64,000 nucleotides of DNA from Acidimicrobiia bacterium. GTDB lineage: Bacteria; Actinomycetota; Acidimicrobiia; Spongiisociales; UBA5794. The notes below the pieces were generated by a model that saw nothing but the letters and a program-made list of their open reading frames with translations, was not told where the DNA came from and ran no database searches. The stretch spans positions 25,656 through 89,655 of the forward strand of contig JAOZRW010000001.1 of NCBI GenBank assembly GCA_029939995.1, in the 5' to 3' direction. Both the position numbers and the translations under genes were made by a program. Shown in pieces: positions 10,561 through 54,562 of the stretch; the first letter of the stretch is position 1, and each line of letters starts with the position of its first letter.

Positions 10561-12363
10561 CTAGAAAGCCTCGGCCGGCAGGTTCATCAGGTCGCCGTCC
10601 TCCGTCTCCGCCAGTTCGCGGCGCAGTCGCGTCTTCGGGAGCACCGTCTTCGCGAAGTAGCGAGCCGAAGCGATCTTGCCCTCGTAGAAGGCCCGGTCCG
10701 CGTCACTCGCACCGTCGAGCGCTTCGAGCGCGACCTCGGCGTGGCGGATCATCAGCCAGCCCATGACGACTTCGGACAGGCTCTCGAGGAGCGTCGTGGT
10801 GTGCAACCCGGTCTTGTAGATCTCCGGCGGATTCTGCATCGCCGCCATCGAGTTCCCGACCATGGCGCCGACCTGCGCCTGGATGTCGGCCAACGCTGCG
10901 CCGAGCAGTTCGCGCTCGACGGCCATCTCCTCGGAACCGCCATTGACCGTCTCGAGGATGTCCTGGCCGAGGCGCATCAGCGTCGCACCCTGGTCCCTGG
11001 CGATCTTGCGGAAGAACAGGTCGAGGCCCTGGATCGCCGTCGTCCCTTCGTAGATCGTGTCGATCTTGGCGTCCCGGATGTACTGCTCGATCGGGTAGTC
11101 CCTGGTGTAGCCGGAGCCTCCGAACACCTGCAGCGACTGTGAGAGCAACTCGTACGCCTTCTCGGACGAGTAGCCCTTCACCAAGGGGAGGAACAGGTCG
11201 TTGAGCTTCGCCCAGTACTCGTCCTCCGGGTGCAGATGCGCCATGTCCAGCAGCCACGCGGCGTATATGACCATGGCCCGCATCCCCTCGGCGTGGACCT
11301 TCTGGATCATGAGGAGCCGCCGCACGTCGGGATGGTGGATGATCGTGACCCGGGGAGCGGTCTTGTCCCGGCTCTGCGTCAGGTCGGCGGACTGGACACG
11401 CTCCTGTGCGTACTCGAGCGCGTTGAGATAGCCGGTCGAGATCGTGGCGGCCGCTTTGACGCCGATCGACATGCGGGCGTCCTCGATGACGAGGAACATC
11501 TGACGGATGCCGTCGTGGACGTCGCCGACGAGGTAGCCGACGGCGGGCTCGTCCAGACCGAAGGTCAACTCGCAGGTCGTCGATCCGCGGATGCCCATCT
11601 TGTCCTCGAGGTTCGTCGTCACGACGCCGTTGCGCTTGCCGAGCGATCCGTCTTCGTTGACCATGAACTTCGGAACGATGAACATCGAGAGGCCCTTCGT
11701 TCCGGGGGGAGCGTCGGGGCGGCGTGCGAGAACGAGGTGGATGATGTTCTCGTAGTAATCGTTGTCGCCCGAGGTGATGAACCGCTTCACGCCCTCGATG
11801 TGCCACACGTCGCCCTCGACGTGTGTCGCCTTCGTGATCCCGGCGCCCACATCCGAACCGGCGTCCGGCTCGGTGAGCACCATGGTGGATCCCCAGTTCC
11901 GCTCCACCATCGGCTTCGCGAAGCGCTCGATCTGCTCGGGCGTCCCGACCGCTTCGATGACCCTGGCCATCAACCCGCCGATCGGATAGAGGAAGATCGC
12001 GGCGTTCGCACCGGCGAACAGCTCACCCGTCGCCCATCGGAGCGTCTCGGGTGCCCCGAACCCTCCGAGACTCTTGGGCACACCGATGAGGTGCCAGCCG
12101 CCGTCGTGCATCGCGTCGAGGCTCTTCTTGACGCCGGGCGGCAGCTCGACGTTCCCGTCGACGAGTTTGAGCTTGGTGCGGTCGGCCTCGACGAAGCTCT
12201 CGGCGAAGTCCTCGGTGGCGAGACGATCGACCTCGCGCAGGATGTCCATCGCCGTGTCGTGGTCGATGTCTTCGAACGGCTCGGTTCCGAGGTACTCGTC
12301 GATCCCGTACGCTTCGAACAGGTTGAACTGCAGATCTCGGAGGTTGCTCTTGTAGTGGCTCAT
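10561..12363 (-). CDS. long-type acyl-CoA dehydrogenase (FadE5-like, with extra N- and C-terminal domains)
   Basis: Start at MSHYKSNLRDLQFNLFEAYG. Motifs MVLTEPDAGSD, ITSGDND, GGSGYTRDYPIEQYIRDAKIDTIYEGTTAIQ are present. About 600 aa. Confidence 0.9.
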   Translation of the reverse strand: MSHYKSNLRDLQFNLFEAYGIDEYLGTEPFEDIDHDTAMDILREVDRLATEDFAESFVEADRTKLKLVDGNVELPPGVKKSLDAMHDGGWHLIGVPKSLGGFGAPETLRWATGELFAGANAAIFLYPIGGLMARVIEAVGTPEQIERFAKPMVERNWGSTMVLTEPDAGSDVGAGITKATHVEGDVWHIEGVKRFITSGDNDYYENIIHLVLARRPDAPPGTKGLSMFIVPKFMVNEDGSLGKRNGVVTTNLEDKMGIRGSTTCELTFGLDEPAVGYLVGDVHDGIRQMFLVIEDARMSIGVKAAATISTGYLNALEYAQERVQSADLTQSRDKTAPRVTIIHHPDVRRLLMIQKVHAEGMRAMVIYAAWLLDMAHLHPEDEYWAKLNDLFLPLVKGYSSEKAYELLSQSLQVFGGSGYTRDYPIEQYIRDAKIDTIYEGTTAIQGLDLFFRKIARDQGATLMRLGQDILETVNGGSEEMAVERELLGAALADIQAQVGAMVGNSMAAMQNPPEIYKTGLHTTTLLESLSEVVMGWLMIRHAEVALEALDGASDADRAFYEGKIASARYFAKTVLPKTRLRRELAETEDGDLMNLPAEAF

Positions 12364-23758: not shown

Positions 23759-23953
23759 GACGTTTCGAACGAGCCGGTTGGCGCTCGGGAACCCCTCCGT
23801 CGTTGAGAGCGTTGTTCCATGTACGAAACCGATCAACCGGGAACCAAACGCTGTGGTCGAAGCGTCTAAGAACAGACGCTGGAATCGATGGGGCCGAATC
23901 TCCAAGACCCGCAGCATTCAAACGCGAACCTACAAGTGAAGGATTTCACAAAC

Positions 23954-24898
23954 ATGAAAACTGCAGAGAAGATGCGATGGGTCGGGCAACCGCTCGAGAT
24001 GGGCGACAGCTTGACCCGGTACCTCCAGGAAATCTCATACCACGAGCTGCTCACGGCAGACGAGGAAGTCGAACTCGCCCAGGCCATCGAAGCCGGGCGT
24101 GAGGCAGAAGAGCAGCTCGCCGCCGTCTCGGTGCGGGGCGCCCAGAAGGTACGCCTCGAGCGGACCGCCCGCAAGGGTCGTGAAGCCCGGGAACGGTTCA
24201 CGCAGGCCAACCTCCGCCTCGTCGTGAGCCAGGCGAAGCGTTACCGCAGCCAGTTCGGCATCGAGTTCATCGACCTCATCCAGGAGGGCAACCTCGGGCT
24301 CATCCGTGCGGTCGAGAAGTTCGATTGGCGCAAGGGCTTCAAGTTCTCCACGTACGCAACCTGGTGGATCCGCCAGTCGATGCAGCGGGCGGTCGCCGAG
24401 AAGTCGCGCACGGTGCGGCTCCCGAACTCGCTCCACGACACGCTCGTGACGCTCAACAGCACCCGTAACCGCCTCCTCTCCGAGCTCGGCCGCGAGCCGA
24501 CGCCGGAGGAGCTCGCCGAGGAGTCGGGCCTCTCCCTCAACGCCGTCGTCGAGGCGCAGCTCGTCAACGACTCCGTTTCTCTCGAAGCGCCCGTCGGCGA
24601 AGATGGTGCGGTCCTCGGAGACTTCGTCGCTCATCACGACGAGGAAGACCCGGTGCGTGAGACCGAGAAGGCGACCGCCATCGAGGCGCTCCGCGAGGCG
24701 ATCAATCGCCTCCCGGAACGAGAGGCGTACATCCTCTCGATGCGGGTCGGTTTCGAAGACGGCCTCCCCCGTACGCACGAGGAGATCGGCGGGAACCTCG
24801 GACTCGGACCGACGCGGGTTCGCTCGATCGAGAAGCTCGCTCTCTCCAAGCTCCGTCACCCGGCGTTCGGTCTCCGGGAAGACGCGATGGACTTCTAG
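23954..24898 (+). CDS. group 2 (SigB-like) sigma-70 family RNA polymerase sigma factor
   Basis: Regions 1.2 to 4.2 are recognisable: [62 protein letters not shown]. The start is uncertain (23888 or 23954). Confidence 0.88.
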
Positions 24899-24920
24899 TC
24901 CGAACCGACTCCGTCAAGAA

Positions 24921-24952
24921 CGAGGGCCGTCTCCGCAGGGAGGCGGCCCTCG
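24921..24952 (+). terminator. hairpin after sigma factor gene
   Basis: cgagggccgtctcc-gcag-ggaggcggccctcg: a 14-bp stem with one G-U pair. Confidence 0.5.
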
Positions 24953-25026
24953 TCGATGACGGATCCCGTCCGCGCACCCCCCGCCATGCGCGACAATGGG
25001 CTCCCAACCGACACGAAGGAGTGACC

Positions 25027-26334
25027 ATGGCCGCGAAGCATCCCGGCGTCGTATACGGACGCCGCGTCGCGATCGTCGACGGTCTTCGCACGCCGTTCGC
25101 GAAGTCCGGCACGGTGTTCAAGGACCTCACCGCCCTCGATCTCGCATCCGGCGTCGTCAAAGAGCTTCTCCAACGGTCCGGCGTCTCCGGAAGCCGGGTC
25201 GATCAGGTCGTCTTCGGCTCGGTCATCGCCGATCCGAACGCGCCGAACATCGCCCGCGAGATCGTCCTCGCCGGCGACTTCCCGCAGACCGTCGAGGCCT
25301 TCTCCGTGAGCCGGGCCTGCGCCACCTCGACCCAGTCCGTCGTCTCGGGAACCCAGTCGATCCTCCTCGGCGACGCCGACATCGTGATCGCCGGCGGCGC
25401 CGACTCGCTGTCGAGACCTCCGGTGCTCTACTCCGATCGTTTCGTCGATGTGCTCATGGACGCCAACGCGGCCAAGGACATCGGGGCCAAGGTCAAGGCG
25501 TTCTCCGGTCTCCGCCCGAAGGACCTCGCTCCCAACCCGCCGGCGATCGCCGAACGTTCCACCGGACTCACGATGGGCGACTCCGCCGAGATCATGGCGA
25601 AGGAGAACGGCATCACACGCGAGGCCCAGGACGAGTACGCGCTGCGATCGCATCAGAAGTCCGTCGCAGCGTGGGAGAACGGCGTCTTCGACGACGAGGT
25701 CATGCCGTTCCCCGTCGGGCCCGACTACCGGACGACGGTGACCCGGGACAACATCCCGCGAGCCGACTCGACGCTCGAGCAGCTCGCACAGCTCCGCCCC
25801 GTCTTCGACAGGAAGTACGGCACGATCACCGCCGCGAGTTCATCGCCGCTCACGGACGGAGCGTCGGCGGTGGTCCTGATGGAGGCGAAGACGGCAGAAC
25901 GGCTCGGGTATGAACCGCGGGCGTTCATCCGCTCCTGGGCGTTCGCCGGCCTCGATCCCAACTGGCAGCTCCTGATGGGTCCGTCCTTCGCGACGCCGAA
26001 GGCCCTCGACAAGGCCGGGTTGACGCTCGACGACATCGACGTGATCGACATGCACGAGGCGTTCGCCGCGCAGGTGCTCTCGAACCTCCAGGCGTTCGCA
26101 TCGACCGAGTGGGCGAAGCGGTGGCTCGGAAGGGATGAGGCGATCGGCGAGATACCGGACGACAAACTCAACCTCTACGGCGGTTCGATCAGCCTCGGAC
26201 ACCCGTTCGGGGCGACCGGAACCCGACAGATCCTGACGATGGCCAACGAACTCGTCCGACGCGGGGAGGGCACGGCCCTCGTCACCCAATGTGCCGCCGG
26301 TGGCCTCGGCGCAGCCGTCGTACTCGAGCGGTAG
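25027..26334 (+). CDS. fadA: acetyl-CoA C-acyltransferase (thiolase)
   Basis: VSRACATSTQ (active Cys), GGSISLGHPFGATG and the terminal CAAGG are present. GAAGGAG lies 7 nt before the ATG. Confidence 0.93.
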   Translation: MAAKHPGVVYGRRVAIVDGLRTPFAKSGTVFKDLTALDLASGVVKELLQRSGVSGSRVDQVVFGSVIADPNAPNIAREIVLAGDFPQTVEAFSVSRACATSTQSVVSGTQSILLGDADIVIAGGADSLSRPPVLYSDRFVDVLMDANAAKDIGAKVKAFSGLRPKDLAPNPPAIAERSTGLTMGDSAEIMAKENGITREAQDEYALRSHQKSVAAWENGVFDDEVMPFPVGPDYRTTVTRDNIPRADSTLEQLAQLRPVFDRKYGTITAASSSPLTDGASAVVLMEAKTAERLGYEPRAFIRSWAFAGLDPNWQLLMGPSFATPKALDKAGLTLDDIDVIDMHEAFAAQVLSNLQAFASTEWAKRWLGRDEAIGEIPDDKLNLYGGSISLGHPFGATGTRQILTMANELVRRGEGTALVTQCAAGGLGAAVVLER

Positions 26335-26344
26335 GGAGAGAGCA

Positions 26345-28507
26345 ATGGAACTCACACACTTCTCGTTCAGCGTCGAAGACGGCATCGCCGTCGTTCTCCT
26401 GGATCGTGCCGGCGAGCCCGTCAACACGATCGGGCCGGCGATCTTCGACGACTTCAACACTGTGGTCGAACGGATCGAGACCGATCCGTCGATCAAGGCC
26501 GCCGTCTTCGGCTCGGCGAAGCGCAACAACTTCCTCGCGGGCGCCGACATCCGGTTCTTCGACACGATCACCGAGGCGGAGGAAGGGGCCGCCGTGATCC
26601 GGCAGCTCCACGCCCTCTTCACCCGCATCGAGGCGCTCCACGCGGTCCACGACAAGCCCGTCGTGATGGCGATCGACGGAGCGTGCCTCGGCGGAGGACT
26701 CGAGTTCGCGCTGACCGGCTCGATGCGGATCGCCACGGACAGCAAGAAGACGCAGCTCGGCCAGCCCGAGGTGCAACTCGGCATCCTGCCCGCCGGCGGC
26801 GCGACGCAGCGTCTCCCGAAACTCGTCGGCATCGCGACCGCCCTCGACATGATCCTCACCGGCCGCCCGGTCCGGCCGCACAAAGCCCGGAAGATCGGAT
26901 TGGTCGATGAGGTCGTGCCCCGCGAGGTGCTCTACGACGTGGCGAAGCGCCGTGCGTCGGAGGCGATCGGTCACCTCGGCGAGGGCGGCGGCTCCTCGTT
27001 CAAGTCGTTCCTCGCCCCGACGCATCTCCAGGATCTCGCTCTCGAACAGAACCCGGTCGGCCGCAGGGTCCTGTTCAAGAAGGCCGAGGAGGCGATGCTC
27101 GAGAAGACGAAGGGTCTCTACCCCGCACCGAAGCGCGCGCTCGAAGCCGTGAAGATCGGCATCGAGCAGGGCAACGCCGCGGGCTACGAAGCGGAAGCGA
27201 CCTTCTTCGGCGAACTCATCATCTCCCCGGAGTCGAAGGCGCTGCGCGGAATCTTCTTCGCCACGCAGATGATGAAACATGCAACCGGCATCGGCGGCAA
27301 CGCAGAACCGAAGCAGGTCTCCAAAGTCGGGGTCCTCGGCGGCGGTCTCATGGGAGCGGGAATCGCCACGGTTTCCGTCCTGAAGGCCGGAGCGACGGTG
27401 AGGATCAAGGAAGTCGACACCGACGGCGTCGCGCACGCCCTCCGCCACGTCTCACAGCAGATCTCGAAACAGGTGACCCGCCGCAAGATGACCCCCTTCG
27501 AAGGGGAGCAGGCGATGAACAAGGTCACCGCGACGACGGACTGGAGCGGGTTCGAGAACACCGATCTCGTGATCGAGGCGGTCTTCGAGTCGCTCGAGTT
27601 GAAGCAGGACCTGCTCGAGCAAGTCGAGGGCCTGGTCGGCGACGACGTCGTGTTCGCCTCGAACACGTCCTCCCTCCCGATCGGCCAGATCGCCGCTCGC
27701 GCCGCACGCCCCGAGGCGGTGCTCGGCATGCACTACTTCTCCCCCGTCGAGAAGATGCCGCTGCTCGAGGTCATCGTCACCGAGGACACCGCCGACTGGG
27801 CGACCGCCACCGCCGTCGAGTTCGGCAAGCGCCAGGGCAAGACCGTCATCGTCGTCAAGGACGGACCGGGCTTCTACACGACGAGGATCCTCGTTCCCTA
27901 CCTGAACGAAGCCTTCTTCCTGCTCGCCGACGGCGCTTCCGTCGAGGCGATCGACGATGCGATGGTGAACTGGGGATTCCCGGTGGGGCCGTTGCTCCTC
28001 ACCGATGAGGTCGGCATCGACGTCGGCGCTCACATCGTGAAGATCATGGGCGATGCCTTCGGCGATCGGATCGCCGGACCCGACATGATGGCCGGCCTCG
28101 TCGAGGACGAACGCAAGGGCCGCAAGAACGGCCGCGGCTTCTACCTCTACAACGACAAGGGCGAGCGGGGCACCGTGGACGACACCGTCTACAAGGCGCT
28201 CGGTCTCGGACCGCGCCGCGTCCTCACCGAGGCGGAGATCAGCGGAAGGATCGTGTCGGCCATGGTCAACGAGGCCGCCCGATGCCTGGAAGAGGGGATC
28301 CTGCGGTCCTCCCTCGACGGTGACATCGGTGCCGTCATGGGTCTCGGGTTCCCGCCGTTCCGCGGCGGCCCGTTCTGGTGGATGGACCAGGTCGGCGCCG
28401 GCGAGATCGCCGCGAAACTCGAGTCGCTCGCCGCCGAGCACGGCGAACGCTTCGAACCGGCGTCCATCATCCGGTCCCGTGCGGAAGAGGGCCGGACCTT
28501 CCGCTGA
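26345..28507 (+). CDS. fadB: bifunctional enoyl-CoA hydratase / 3-hydroxyacyl-CoA dehydrogenase
   Basis: N-terminal crotonase fold (FLAGADI, GGGLEFAL). NAD site VGVLGGGLMGAGIA. HAD C-terminal domains. Confidence 0.93.
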   Translation: MELTHFSFSVEDGIAVVLLDRAGEPVNTIGPAIFDDFNTVVERIETDPSIKAAVFGSAKRNNFLAGADIRFFDTITEAEEGAAVIRQLHALFTRIEALHAVHDKPVVMAIDGACLGGGLEFALTGSMRIATDSKKTQLGQPEVQLGILPAGGATQRLPKLVGIATALDMILTGRPVRPHKARKIGLVDEVVPREVLYDVAKRRASEAIGHLGEGGGSSFKSFLAPTHLQDLALEQNPVGRRVLFKKAEEAMLEKTKGLYPAPKRALEAVKIGIEQGNAAGYEAEATFFGELIISPESKALRGIFFATQMMKHATGIGGNAEPKQVSKVGVLGGGLMGAGIATVSVLKAGATVRIKEVDTDGVAHALRHVSQQISKQVTRRKMTPFEGEQAMNKVTATTDWSGFENTDLVIEAVFESLELKQDLLEQVEGLVGDDVVFASNTSSLPIGQIAARAARPEAVLGMHYFSPVEKMPLLEVIVTEDTADWATATAVEFGKRQGKTVIVVKDGPGFYTTRILVPYLNEAFFLLADGASVEAIDDAMVNWGFPVGPLLLTDEVGIDVGAHIVKIMGDAFGDRIAGPDMMAGLVEDERKGRKNGRGFYLYNDKGERGTVDDTVYKALGLGPRRVLTEAEISGRIVSAMVNEAARCLEEGILRSSLDGDIGAVMGLGFPPFRGGPFWWMDQVGAGEIAAKLESLAAEHGERFEPASIIRSRAEEGRTFR

Positions 28508-28597
28508 CAAGCCGGCCGTGCGGAGGAGCACCACCCCGTCCGGGGTCGGCGCCCCGGATCGCGCCCGCCTCTGCAGGAGTACGCTTCCGCAGCGAAC

Positions 28598-29824
28598 ATG
28601 ACCGAACACACATCCCCCGGACCGGAGAACGTCCAGAAGGTCGGAATCATCGGAGGCGGCCCGATCGCTGCGGGGATCGCCGCGGTCTCCGCCGTCCGGA
28701 CCGGAGCGACCGTCCGGGTGAAGGAGAACGACGATGCCGGCGCCCAACGGCTCCTCGCTCGCGTGTCGAACGAACTCGCGAGACGGATCGAACTCGGCGA
28801 GATGACGGAGACCGAAGCCGGACGAGTAGCGGACCGGGTCTCGGTGACCACCGACTGGTCGGGGTTCGACGACGCGGACCTGATCATCGAGTCCGGCTAC
28901 GAGTCCCTCGACCACAAACGTGCCCTCCTCGCCGAAGCCGGAGCCGCTGCGGGAGAGCACACGGTCCTGGCGTCGAACACCTCGTTCCTGCCGATCGGCG
29001 AGATCGCGGCCGGCGCCGACCGGCCCGAGGCGGTTCTCGGCATGCACTACTTCGCCCCGGCCGAGGTGATGCCGCTGCTCGAGGTCGTCGTGACGGACCG
29101 GACCTCCGACCGGGCAACGGCAACCGCCGTCGCGTTCGGGGAGCGCCAGGGGAAAGCGGTGATCGTCGTCGCGGACACCCCCGGCTTCTACACGACCCGG
29201 CTCCTCGTCACGTACCTCAACGAGGCGTTCTTCCTCCTGAGCGAGGGGGCGTCGGTCGAAGCGATCGACGGGGCCATGGTGCGGTGGGGCTTCTCCGCCG
29301 GGCCGTTCCTGCTGGTCGACGAACTCGGACTCGGCTTCGTCACGCACATCATGCAGACCGCGGTCGACGGATTCGGCGACCGGATCGTCGGACCTCCCGA
29401 CGTGATCGATCGCCTCATCGACGACGATCGGTTGGGACGGGCGAACGGCCGGGGCTTCTACCGGTACGACGAGACGGGGCGGCGCACCGGCTTCGACGAG
29501 GGCATCTACGAAGCCATCGGACTGGGCCCGCGGATCGAACTCGACGAGTCGCTGATGCACTCCCGCACGGCACTGTCGATAATCGACGAGGCGGCCCGGT
29601 GCCTCGAGGAGGGGGTCCTCCGATCGGCGCTCGACGGTGACGTCGGAGCGGTGGCCGGACTCGGCTTCCCGGCATCCAAGGGAGGTCCGTTCTGGTGGGC
29701 CGACCAGGTGAGCGCCGGCGGCATCGTGGAACGGCTCGAGATCTACGCCGCCCTGTACGGTGAACGGTTCGAGCCGGCGCAGATCCTGCGCGACCACGCA
29801 GCGTCGGGCAAGAACCTGAGGTAG
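28598..29824 (+). CDS. 3-hydroxyacyl-CoA dehydrogenase (dehydrogenase-only paralog of the FadB C-terminal part)
   Basis: 408 aa, colinear with FadB residues from VGVLGGG onward: VGIIGGGPIAAGIA, LGMHYFAPAEVMPLLEVV, DTPGFYTTRLL. Confidence 0.85.
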   Translation: MTEHTSPGPENVQKVGIIGGGPIAAGIAAVSAVRTGATVRVKENDDAGAQRLLARVSNELARRIELGEMTETEAGRVADRVSVTTDWSGFDDADLIIESGYESLDHKRALLAEAGAAAGEHTVLASNTSFLPIGEIAAGADRPEAVLGMHYFAPAEVMPLLEVVVTDRTSDRATATAVAFGERQGKAVIVVADTPGFYTTRLLVTYLNEAFFLLSEGASVEAIDGAMVRWGFSAGPFLLVDELGLGFVTHIMQTAVDGFGDRIVGPPDVIDRLIDDDRLGRANGRGFYRYDETGRRTGFDEGIYEAIGLGPRIELDESLMHSRTALSIIDEAARCLEEGVLRSALDGDVGAVAGLGFPASKGGPFWWADQVSAGGIVERLEIYAALYGERFEPAQILRDHAASGKNLR

Positions 29825-29871
29825 CGGGACCGACGATTCCGACCCCCTCCGCCCCCCCCCTGCGGGCGGCA

Positions 29872-30187
29872 CCTCCCCCTGAGCCTCAATCCACGGTTTG
29901 TGGGTGATAGTTTGGTGAGTGTCCCTTGTGGTGTCTGGGATTCCCGAGATTCGGGTTCTTCACGATCCGGGTGAAGTCGCTGAGGGCTCACTTGGACATT
30001 CTCCCCCGGCGACGAAGGAGGTGGGGGAGATGGCCCGAAGGGCCAGAGAGGGCGTCCTCGAACCGCAGGTGACGCCGCTGTGCCCCCCTGCGGCGCGGGG
30101 CGCCGCGTCCCCCCGTCCTTCGGCCGAGGGGACATGTGGAGAGACGCCGATCTCTCCAGAGCCCGTGGATTGAGGCTCAGGGGGAGG
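29872..30187 (+). other. 316-bp hairpin-dense element closed by a perfect 25-bp inverted repeat (MITE-like or structured RNA; class unknown)
   Basis: cctccccctgagcctcaatccacgg (29872-29896) is the exact reverse complement of 30163-30187. At least 7 internal stems of 5-8 bp. It sits between two convergent gene ends. Confidence 0.6.
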
Positions 30188-30215
30188 AAGTGGACCCACC
30201 GGCGGAGCCGCGAAC

Positions 30216-30887
30216 CTACTGGTGGCCTTCGACGAAGCGGCGGACGGACTCGGGGACCTCGATGTCGTCGGCAAGGCGCTGATCCGGCTGCGGGTCGCCG
30301 GCCGCCGTTCTCAGCGGGATCGCCCCCGCCCAGACCGGGAGATCGTAATCGTCGTCCTCGTCGTCGACCTCGCTGCCGCGCACCTTCGCCGAATACTCCT
30401 CGATCGGAACGGCGACGACGAGCGTTCCCTTGTCCTCGTTGCGCTTCATCTCACGGGCCTCGTCCCAACGTCCGGGCAGAACGGCGTTCGTGATCGCCGC
30501 CAGTGCAAGCTCCCGCTCCTCCGGATCGTCGACGACCCGGGCCTCCCCGATCACGAGCGCGGACCGGAATCCGAGCGAACTGTTGAAAGCGGATCTCGCT
30601 ACGACGATCGAGTCGACGAGTGTCACCGCGACGGACACCTCCGCGCCCTTCTTCATGAGTCGCAGCATGCGACTCGCCGGCGAGCCGTGGAAGTAGAGCG
30701 TGTCGCCGACGCGGGCGTGGATCGACGGGATGACGAACGGAGTGCCGTCGTGGACGAAGCCGACGTGACACACGAACGTCCCATCGAGGATCGCGTCGAG
30801 CGTCTCCCGGTCGTAGTCGGCCCGGTCGGGGGACCGCTTCACCGTCGTCCGCTCGGAAGGTCCCTGTGGATAGTTCGTCTTGCCCAT
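30216..30887 (-). CDS. pyridoxamine 5'-phosphate oxidase family (FMN-binding split barrel) protein
   Basis: Start at MGKTNYPQGPSERTTV. ILDGTFVCHVGFVHDGTPFVIPSIHARVGDTLYFHGS is typical of the family. The track ORF to 31916 is an artefactual extension. Confidence 0.8.
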   Translation of the reverse strand: MGKTNYPQGPSERTTVKRSPDRADYDRETLDAILDGTFVCHVGFVHDGTPFVIPSIHARVGDTLYFHGSPASRMLRLMKKGAEVSVAVTLVDSIVVARSAFNSSLGFRSALVIGEARVVDDPEERELALAAITNAVLPGRWDEAREMKRNEDKGTLVVAVPIEEYSAKVRGSEVDDEDDDYDLPVWAGAIPLRTAAGDPQPDQRLADDIEVPESVRRFVEGHQ

Positions 30888-31001
30888 GATGCTCGTCGCC
30901 TCTCTCGAAATTCGTGGACAGCGTAGAACGATTGGATCGGTCAACAGGCATTCGCCGCCGCTCACGATCTGCGTCGACGGTGAGGCCGATAATCTGGCTC
31001 G

Positions 31002-32647: not shown

Positions 32648-32655
<8 letters not shown>
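32173..32655 (-). CDS. deazaflavin (F420)-dependent nitroreductase (DDN) family protein
   Basis: [35 protein letters not shown] is typical of the DDN family. The ATG overlaps the gcvP stop by 8 nt. Confidence 0.8.
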
Positions 32656-35566
<2,911 letters not shown>

Positions 35567-35595: not shown

Positions 35596-35776
35596 CGGTC
35601 GCCCCGTCTGTCGGATGACCTGAGAGATTCACCGCGTCGGCGGCTTTCCCCTTCGGTGAGGACCGGGGTCCTGCTCTCCAGAGGTGCCTCGCCCCGCGGT
35701 CCTGGTGCCTGCGAGTTTGCCGGGGTGGTTGCTCCTTCGGCGCGACCTGCGTCGCTCTCCCGCGAGGGTCGGTGGC
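35596..35776 (-). promoter_or_regulatory. tandem glycine riboswitch in gcvP leader
   Basis: The minus-strand RNA shows aptamer 1 GGGAGAGCGACGCAGGUCGCGCCGAAGGAGCAACC and aptamer 2 CUCUGGAGAGCAGGACCCCGGUCCUCACCGAAGGGGAAAGCC..UCUCUCAGGU. A hairpin and GAGGAG precede the ATG. Confidence 0.9.
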
Positions 35777-54489: not shown

Positions 54490-54562
54490 GGGCCTGTAGC
54501 TCCAATGGCAGAGCAGCGGACTTTTAATCCGAAGCGTGTGGGTTCGAGTCCCACCGGGCCCA
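54490..54562 (+). tRNA. tRNA-Lys (anticodon UUU)
   Basis: Cloverleaf by hand: acceptor GGGCCTG/CGGGCCC, D arm GCTC..GAGC, anticodon loop CTTTTAA, T arm GTGGG-TTCGAGT-CCCAC, discriminator A. No encoded CCA. Confidence 0.92.

Follow-up and report, generated by a model that had tools for sequence, protein, structure and literature searches.

A probable MITE related to IS1380-family insertion sequences in the loop of a hairpin between convergent genes of an Acidimicrobiia bacterium

Bacterial MITEs can be moved in trans by a cognate insertion sequence (IS), as in RUP with IS630-Spn1 in the pneumococcus, Chunjie in Geobacter, and MITEAba12 (PMC10969869). The IS1380 family is unmentioned in that 2024 review of bacterial MITEs (PMC10969869), and it is known for the use of surrogate ends and for mobilizing adjacent DNA (PMC9330008). 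REP-type repeats and the BOX, RUP, and SPRITE repeats form mosaics or clusters, and copies insert into one another (PMC10969869). Ms1, a structured and abundant actinobacterial RNA of about 230 to 300 nt, binds the RNA polymerase (RNAP) core; its gene is single copy and has a HAD hydrolase or oxidoreductase gene as its neighbor (PMC9130861). Recognition of Ms1 genes relies on conserved synteny with two genes, one for a HAD hydrolase/phosphoserine phosphatase and one for an oxidoreductase, and they have been found in orders of the class Actinomycetes, with Acidimicrobiia not among the orders listed (PMC9130861). In the literature, we found no description of IS1380-derived MITEs, of Acidimicrobiia repeats of the kind reported here, or of this MITE family; a MITE family with candidate IS1380 partners in these poorly studied, uncultured Acidimicrobiia is apparently undescribed.

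The DNA that we analyzed is a 64-kb stretch from an Acidimicrobiia bacterium (here called the window). At 29872-30187, it carries a 316-nt element that a preliminary description had presented as densely folded, closed by a perfect 25-bp inverted repeat, and placed between convergent genes. The inverted repeat is indeed perfect, with 25/25 Watson-Crick pairs between 29872-29896 (CCTCCCCCTGAGCCTCAATCCACGG) and 30163-30187, and the 25-mer arm forms just one pair in the 64-kb window, even when three mismatches are allowed (0 expected in shuffles). All seven local stems described between the arms are also present where they had been placed, with lengths of 5, 8 (two G-U), 8, 5, 6, 7, and 8 bp. RNAfold gave −190.3 kcal/mol for the plus strand (z, −7.9 versus dinucleotide shuffles) and −178.0 kcal/mol for the minus strand (z, −8.3), and neither value was reached by any shuffle. 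The lower GC content and G+T richness described for the first 100 nt were borne out at 29900-29999 (GC, 0.55; GC skew, +0.31; AT skew, −0.38).

The flanking genes are convergent, as described, with stops ending at 29824 (+) and beginning at 30216 (−). To the left lies a 3-hydroxyacyl-CoA dehydrogenase (3HCDH) paralog on the plus strand (stop, 29822-29824), for which an exact-protein look-up gave no match. To the right lies a Pyridox_ox_2 (PNPOx-family) flavoprotein gene on the minus strand (stop, 30216-30218), whose homologs were found only in uncultured Actinomycetota and Acidimicrobiia. The left side of the locus (23888-29824) holds a sigma-70 family gene, then fadA (thiolase), a full-length fadB, and a second fadB paralog with 3-hydroxyacyl-CoA dehydrogenase domains only, and this arrangement is conserved in L001, one of the loci that we fetched (numbered with the prefix L). 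Elsewhere in the window, a tandem glycine riboswitch (35602-35772, minus strand; two RF00504 aptamers with 48 and 52 bits) lies upstream of gcvP (glycine dehydrogenase; 32648-35566, minus strand), and there is a tRNA at 54490-54562.

When the junction is read with a 13-bp TIR and a 5-bp target-site duplication (TSD), the 25-bp arm of the window divides into target stem (7 bp), TSD (5 bp), and TIR (13 bp). We conclude that 29884-30175 is very probably a MITE with kinship to IS1380-family elements of Acidimicrobiia; the hairpin whose loop it occupies is REP-like and lies between the 3' ends of two convergent genes. The features of the element and its flanks, with the evidence for each, are as follows.

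29841..29871, no strand: flank of the target repeat unit ("A/X" unit), made up of GACCCCCTCC, a small hairpin CCGCCC...GGGCGG, and CAC
29872..29878, no strand: left stem of the pre-existing target hairpin, CCTCCCC (unoccupied hairpins elsewhere)
29879..29883, no strand: left copy of the 5-bp TSD, CTGAG (junction table; L001 and IS copies)
29884..29896, plus strand: left TIR, CCTCAATCCACGG (likeness to the ends of IS1380-family ISs)
29884..30175, plus strand: MITE body, 292 bp from TIR to TIR (nhmmer profile; copy alignment)
about 29897-29999, plus strand: left "U" domain of the MITE body, G/T-rich
30000-30030, plus strand: central hairpin of the MITE body, TCTCCCCC...GGGGGAGA, target-like
30031-45, 30051-76, 30090-106, 30107-33, and 30137-58, plus strand: hairpins of the right "V" domain of the MITE body
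30163..30175, minus strand: right TIR, reading CCGTGGATTGAGG on the plus strand (junction comparison)
30176..30180, no strand: right TSD copy, CTCAG, whose center base differs from that of the left copy
30181..30187, no strand: right stem of the target hairpin, GGGGAGG (unoccupied hairpins elsewhere)
30188..30195, no strand: conserved, purine-rich outer flank of the target unit, AAGTGGAC, of the AAGAAGAC type at other loci (flank comparison of copies)

The TIRs (CCTCAATCCACGG and CCGTGGATTGAGG) are complementary at 13/13 positions in the window and are conserved in all copies. Between them, the MITE has no coding capacity, as its internal 84-aa ORF has no Pfam match and L001 differs by a frame-breaking 32-nt indel. 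The element is thus small and non-coding, its 292 bp lying under the limit of about 600 bp used for MITEs, and indels vary among copies. A tblastn search found no transposase gene in the 64-kb window, in agreement with the earlier statement that none is adjacent, and blastn of a plasmid collection gave no match.

The element belongs to a dispersed, multicopy family. A profile hidden Markov model (nhmmer) made from an alignment of 13 full-length copies matched the window at 29873-30187 (E, 9.7e-69), with one copy in 64 kb, and it also recognized the interior in 48 of the other fetched loci, with 15 of these matches being full length. One genome per species was scanned with an exact 19-nt end pattern, CCTSRATCCACGGTTTGTG, which gave 21 loci. 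Eleven of these were real and represent at least 11 contigs of four Acidimicrobiia/Actinomycetes MAGs: Acidimicrobiia GMC2.metabat2.12 (five contigs), Acidimicrobiia CSMAG_2834 (two contigs), Actinomycetes H2.bin.94 (three contigs), and Actinomycetes H2.bin.33 (one contig). The other 10/21 lacked the family flanking context and were probably chance matches. Several matches to CCTSRATCCACGGTTTGTG sit at contig ends, as is typical where assemblies break at repeats. The junction of the window copy itself was absent from the genome contigs scanned. A metagenome scan with CCCTSAGCCTSRATCCACGG yielded 61 loci, most of them with the family context.

The copies fall into size classes of about 165, 217 to 246, and 289 to 335 bp, and 15 full-length copies, taken from different organisms and from loci that are unrelated, have the 290- to 330-bp interior in conserved form. 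Based on crude gene calls, the full-length copies and most others are intergenic; the short variants in L061 and L075 overlap a predicted ORF. Copies between convergent gene ends include those in the window, L001, L035, L040, L050, L053b, and L076. In L011 and L018, a copy lies between menB and menA, which are co-directional, so not all copies are found between convergent ends.

In the orthologous menB-menA spacer, the MITE (L011, 6677-6965; L018, 1199-1522) is still 72 to 80% identical; the adjacent non-repeat spacer is unalignable, and MenA is roughly 85% identical by eye. This preserved similarity suggests that the MITE here is constrained, evolves in concert, or was inserted more than once into one hairpin. 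Short tandem heptamer/octamer repeats adjoin MITE copies in L011 (6604-6632), L018 (1100-1117), and L006 (800-850). These repeats occur upstream of menA in two MAGs and take the form of GTACTGA/GTACTCA, as a palindrome, and of CTGATCTA.

Four contigs with the same 3HCDH-PNPOx synteny as the window (L001 to L004) were compared, labeled by PNPOx identity. L001 (99%) carries the element, with an intergenic region that is 89.5% identical, three arm mismatches, and 32 nt deleted internally. A shorter version of 246 bp is found in L003 (86%), where the ends are conserved and most of the interior differs. The element is absent from L002 (92%), where a DUF1622 gene is found instead (10695-11294), and from L004 (85%), whose 120-nt intergenic region holds an empty short hairpin, CCTCCCCTTCAGGGGGAGG. 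This comparison indicates that the element is present in some close relatives and absent from others and that its ends are far better conserved than its interior. Among the fetched loci, we found no strictly orthologous pair in the same orientation for a comparison of filled and empty sites. The 3HCDH-PNPOx intergenic region is a hot spot in relatives (L002 and L003); in L003 (6833-9053), a DUF222+HNH (13E12-like) gene and a PhdYeFM/PIN toxin-antitoxin pair lie around the element.

Identical 5-bp repeats flank eight MITE copies (L001, L011, L026, L040, L047, L050, L053b, and L076), and in L053b the pair CTTCA/CTTCA lies at a non-palindromic, non-hairpin site. According to the preliminary description, the element had no obvious TSD; the 5-bp duplication sits within the 25-bp arms, with its center base altered. 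The window TSD is therefore imperfect (CTGAG versus CTCAG; 4/5 identical, center swapped), and such center-swapped 5-mers (CTGAG...CTCAG) occur in six of about 16 MITE copies, the window included. A center swap is also what a plain palindrome would give. L001, the closest relative of the window copy, has unmodified identical 5-mers on both sides. We read the window arms as fully complementary because one center base of the duplication would have changed later, a change for which gene conversion or the correction of a mismatch in the hairpin may be responsible. The junction was also considered as a longer TIR beside a 3-bp TNA duplication, a reading that was dropped in favor of a 5-bp CTNAG duplication with a 13-bp TIR after full ISs had been seen.

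These full ISs have ends that match those of the MITE. On a metagenome contig (L054), a 1,724-bp element with MITE-type ends encloses a 493-aa ORF and is flanked by CTGAG/CTGAG; the ORF scored 304.2 bits against the IS1380 equivalog model NF033539 (cutoff, 180). Three further ISs (L087 to L089), which were fetched by protein homology only (74 to 85% identity), have the ends CCTGGATCCACCGG and the perfect 5-bp direct repeats CTTAG, CTCAG, and CTTAG. A tblastn search of all fetched loci identified a second, distant IS1380 transposase in L063 (NF033539, 284.8 bits; cutoff, 180). The L063 IS is 1,494 bp long, with the ends CCTGAATCCACGAGGT and CCTCAATCCACGAGGT and the near-identical repeats ATCAG/CTCAG; it occupies the same hairpin and flank context as the MITEs, and a MITE end lies 146 nt downstream on the same contig. 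A 75%-identical relative of this IS (L090; 1,489 bp) was found on a 2.73-Mb contig of an Acidimicrobiia MAG. Its left end is CCTGAATCCGCGGTTTGG, and its perfect repeats, TTTCA/TTTCA, lie in the loop of a C-run/G-run hairpin, CCCTTCCCCC...GGGGGGAGGGG. No MITE copies were found within 10 kb of the Acidimicrobiia IS in L090 to L094.

Overall, the 5-bp direct repeats flanking the ISs are perfect in 5/6 cases (CTGAG, CTTAG, CTCAG, and TTTCA). The MITE ends agree with the IS ends at 11 to 12/13 nt for L063 and L054 and at 9 to 12/13 nt for L090 (10 to 11/13 for the left TIR of the window), and over 20 nt the agreement is up to 15 to 16/20 (window versus L090, 15/20). Beyond about 20 nt, the similarity between MITE and IS interiors is weak, with only the G/T-rich character of the left end in common, and the MITE interior has no detectable similarity to transposase coding sequence. 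The MITE thus has its TIRs in common with transposase-bearing IS1380-family elements of Acidimicrobiia and other Actinomycetota. Of the possibilities raised in the preliminary description, it is the MITE that is supported, given a dispersed multicopy family, 5-bp TSDs, and TIRs matching those of IS1380-family ISs.

The target hairpin also occurs without an insertion. In 564 kb of fetched DNA, we counted 13 unoccupied hairpins, CCTCCCC-CTSAG-GGGGAGG, at L004, L008, L018, L032, L037, L045, L056, and L076, with asymmetric flanks like those of the occupied ones. These flanks are GTCTTCTT on one side and TGCCGAC...GGCGGAGGGGGTC on the other, often followed by an X module of ~85 nt. At other loci, a conserved module, TGCCGAC...GGCGGAGGGGGTC, adjoins the target hairpin, and positions 29841-29871 of the window are its reverse complement. 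By blastn, the region 29837-29906 was matched by the modules of L011, L018, L008, and L032, and the module is found beside unoccupied hairpins as well. Hairpin units cluster in alternating orientation in L032 and L056, in a BIME-like manner. The orientation of the MITE interior relative to the asymmetric flanks is opposite in the window and in L011; the occurrence of both orientations is expected of insertion into a palindromic target and not of an RNA gene. Nearly all MITE copies lie in very similar hairpin flanks, so the mobile unit could exceed the TIR-to-TIR segment, or a second repeat family could be involved.

The outer hairpin unit is a second repeat family, which serves as the target of the MITE. 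In the window, it comprises 29841-29871 and 30188-30195, and other copies lie at L032 2382-2607, L056 245-524, L008 3043-3150, and L018 1530-1650. The X module is inverted between the orthologous loci L011 and L018, and it may have short terminal repeats of its own, GGGGAGGTGSC.

The many internal stems of the element are family features, and one of them mimics the target hairpin: the internal hairpin TCTCCMCC...TGGGGGAGA (30000-30030). In L006, L008, L021, and L055, a second left half begins directly after ...CTCCACCA[CGCAG], and the joints lie within the loop of this same internal hairpin. The 130-nt left half of the MITE forms tandem arrays at L006 161-727 (reverse strand), L008 3160-3400, L021 5951-6135, and L055 1-301. 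The tandem left halves suggest self-nesting followed by deletion or else one-ended (surrogate-end) transposition. The surrogate-end use known for IS1380 members could explain how two ends came to enclose unrelated DNA and how left-half arrays that are tandem or one-ended arose.

The preliminary description had leaned toward a plus-strand RNA and named a 6S/Ms1-like ncRNA among its options. A gene for a structured ncRNA of this or another large kind, with a plus-strand transcript that acts by its fold, would account for the very stable predicted fold given above, and both the size and the closed-rod predicted shape resemble Ms1 (PMC9130861). The plus strand also folds better than the minus strand in 12/13 copies (mean difference, −17.5 kcal/mol). 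In addition, 93.9% of the consensus pairs are kept across copies, with double changes in 12 pairs versus 6 to 7 in slid controls, although the consensus structure was derived from the same alignment as the pairing count and the copies are related. The folding advantage of the plus strand is concentrated in the G/T-rich left domain, and we attribute this asymmetry to a G/T composition that is common to IS left ends. That domain, on whose G+U richness the RNA lean had been based, is no more stable than shuffles (six copies; z, −1.0 to +1.6), and its MFE folds are discordant. Moreover, the family is multicopy, has TSDs, and is found in both orientations relative to its flanks, and the copy at menB-menA runs antisense to the operon. 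The preliminary description had itself named many dispersed copies with TSDs as an observation that would count against an RNA gene, and such copies are present in related MAGs and metagenomes. Covariance-model searches agreed with the earlier impression that no known RNA family is represented: Rfam gave no relevant match in 29000-31000 at an E value of ≤10 or in six other MITE copies at an E value of ≤1, and at the gathering score it returned only the tRNA and the tandem glycine riboswitch across the whole window, with no match at the element. Scans with sigma-70-type promoter and intrinsic-terminator consensus sequences found neither. An identity with Ms1 or 6S does not fit the flanking genes (3HCDH and Pyridox_ox_2 are not the Ms1 synteny genes), the host lineage, or the lack of an Rfam match, and the element belongs to a multicopy family. 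We found no positive evidence for a dedicated RNA, and we regard an ncRNA gene as highly improbable. The interior hairpins do keep their pairing with more double substitutions than the slid controls, and thus some structural constraint on the GC-rich interior hairpins is possible.

It is also conceivable that the locus is a mosaic of the REP/BIME type, whose palindromic units were spread by recombination or by an enzyme like RAYT, the transposase associated with REP units, with the likeness to IS ends being secondary. The hairpin unit with its conserved asymmetric flanks and X module, the alternating clusters of units, the tandem left halves in L006, L008, and L021, and the inversion of the X module between L011 and L018 would all fit such a mosaic. 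However, the 13-nt ends of transposase-bearing IS1380 elements mark the exact limits of the 292-bp interior, the 5-bp repeats that flank it have the same length and consensus as those of the ISs, one copy lies outside any hairpin, and the outer units do occur without the interior (the 13 empty units). A REP/BIME origin is therefore very unlikely for the element as a whole and probably fits the outer hairpin unit that serves as its target. Even less credible is that the element is the decayed, internally deleted remnant of a single IS1380 insertion and not a member of an amplifying MITE family. Its ends and G/T-rich left subterminal sequence do resemble IS left ends, but an interior of 290 to 330 bp recurs in the 15 full-length copies, whose loci are unrelated and whose hosts differ, and this interior shows no detectable trace of transposase coding sequence.

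A MITE of the IS1380 group in a REP-like hairpin loop remains the reading that we prefer, and it is based on family membership, multicopy dispersal, TIR identity, TSDs of family copies, unoccupied targets, and absence from the corresponding spacer of some relatives, all of which we observed. We infer mobilization in trans by a transposase of the IS1380 group. In the mechanism that we propose, a DDE transposase of the matching group would bind the 13-bp TIRs (CCTSRATCCACGG) and insert the MITE by a 5-bp staggered cut. The MITE would thereby have entered the loop (CTSAG) of a pre-existing GC-rich hairpin, CCTCCCC-CTSAG-GGGGAGG, between the convergent genes, and one center base of the duplicated target would have changed afterwards to give the perfect arms. 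If transcribed from either convergent gene, the element would fold into an RNA hairpin of high stability, with the potential to stop read-through or 3' exonucleases in the manner of REP, ERIC, and Correia elements. A joint reading goes further and holds that the IS1380 group and the MITE home to REP-like 3'-end hairpin loops and that the interior hairpins are selected, making the element a domesticated structured-RNA cassette and not junk; we consider this doubtful. Under the domesticated-cassette reading, the target copy borne by the MITE may permit self-nesting and the tandem left-half arrays, and the inserted element may act as a bidirectional terminator, an mRNA stabilizer, or an sRNA.

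The element is very probably an ordinary kind of mobile DNA and not a single-copy regulatory RNA gene, and with this a false lead toward a new large ncRNA is removed. It is important to note that MITE repeats of this type break MAG assemblies, with many copies at contig ends, and can be mistaken for RNA genes. Of more specialist note are the strong bias of insertions toward one GC-rich hairpin loop at the 3' ends of genes, the target-like hairpin inside the MITE with its nested and tandem arrays, and the frequent apparent "perfecting" of the arms by a change in the center base of the TSD.

Compared with Ms1/6S RNA of Actinobacteria, the element has a similar length (about 300 nt), a closed, rod-like predicted fold, and a high-GC actinobacterial host genome, but it belongs to a multicopy, probably mobile family, lies in another gene context, and matches no Rfam model. 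With REP/BIME, ERIC, and Correia elements and the pneumococcal BOX/RUP/SPRITE repeats, it has in common that these are highly folded intergenic repeats at gene 3' ends, and like the REP-type repeats, the MITE is likely co-transcribed as a 3'-UTR hairpin. It differs from REP-type repeats in that no sequence relation was found and that the REP-like part here is the outer hairpin unit, not the 292-bp interior.

The candidate partner ISs resemble the IS1380 family (ISEcp1 and ISPme1) in having one DDE transposase ORF, a length of about 1.5 to 1.7 kb, ends starting with CC, 5-bp duplications, and a match to the IS1380 equivalog model. The window element differs from these ISs in having no transposase and in sharing only about 13 to 20 nt per end with them. 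Its family is closest to other bacterial MITEs, which likewise are <600 bp and non-coding, have IS-matching TIRs and a TSD, occur in many dispersed and mostly intergenic copies, form size subfamilies, and insert into one another. What sets the present family apart from them is its putative IS1380-family parent, the concentration of its insertions in the loop of one GC-rich hairpin, and its uncultured Acidimicrobiia hosts.
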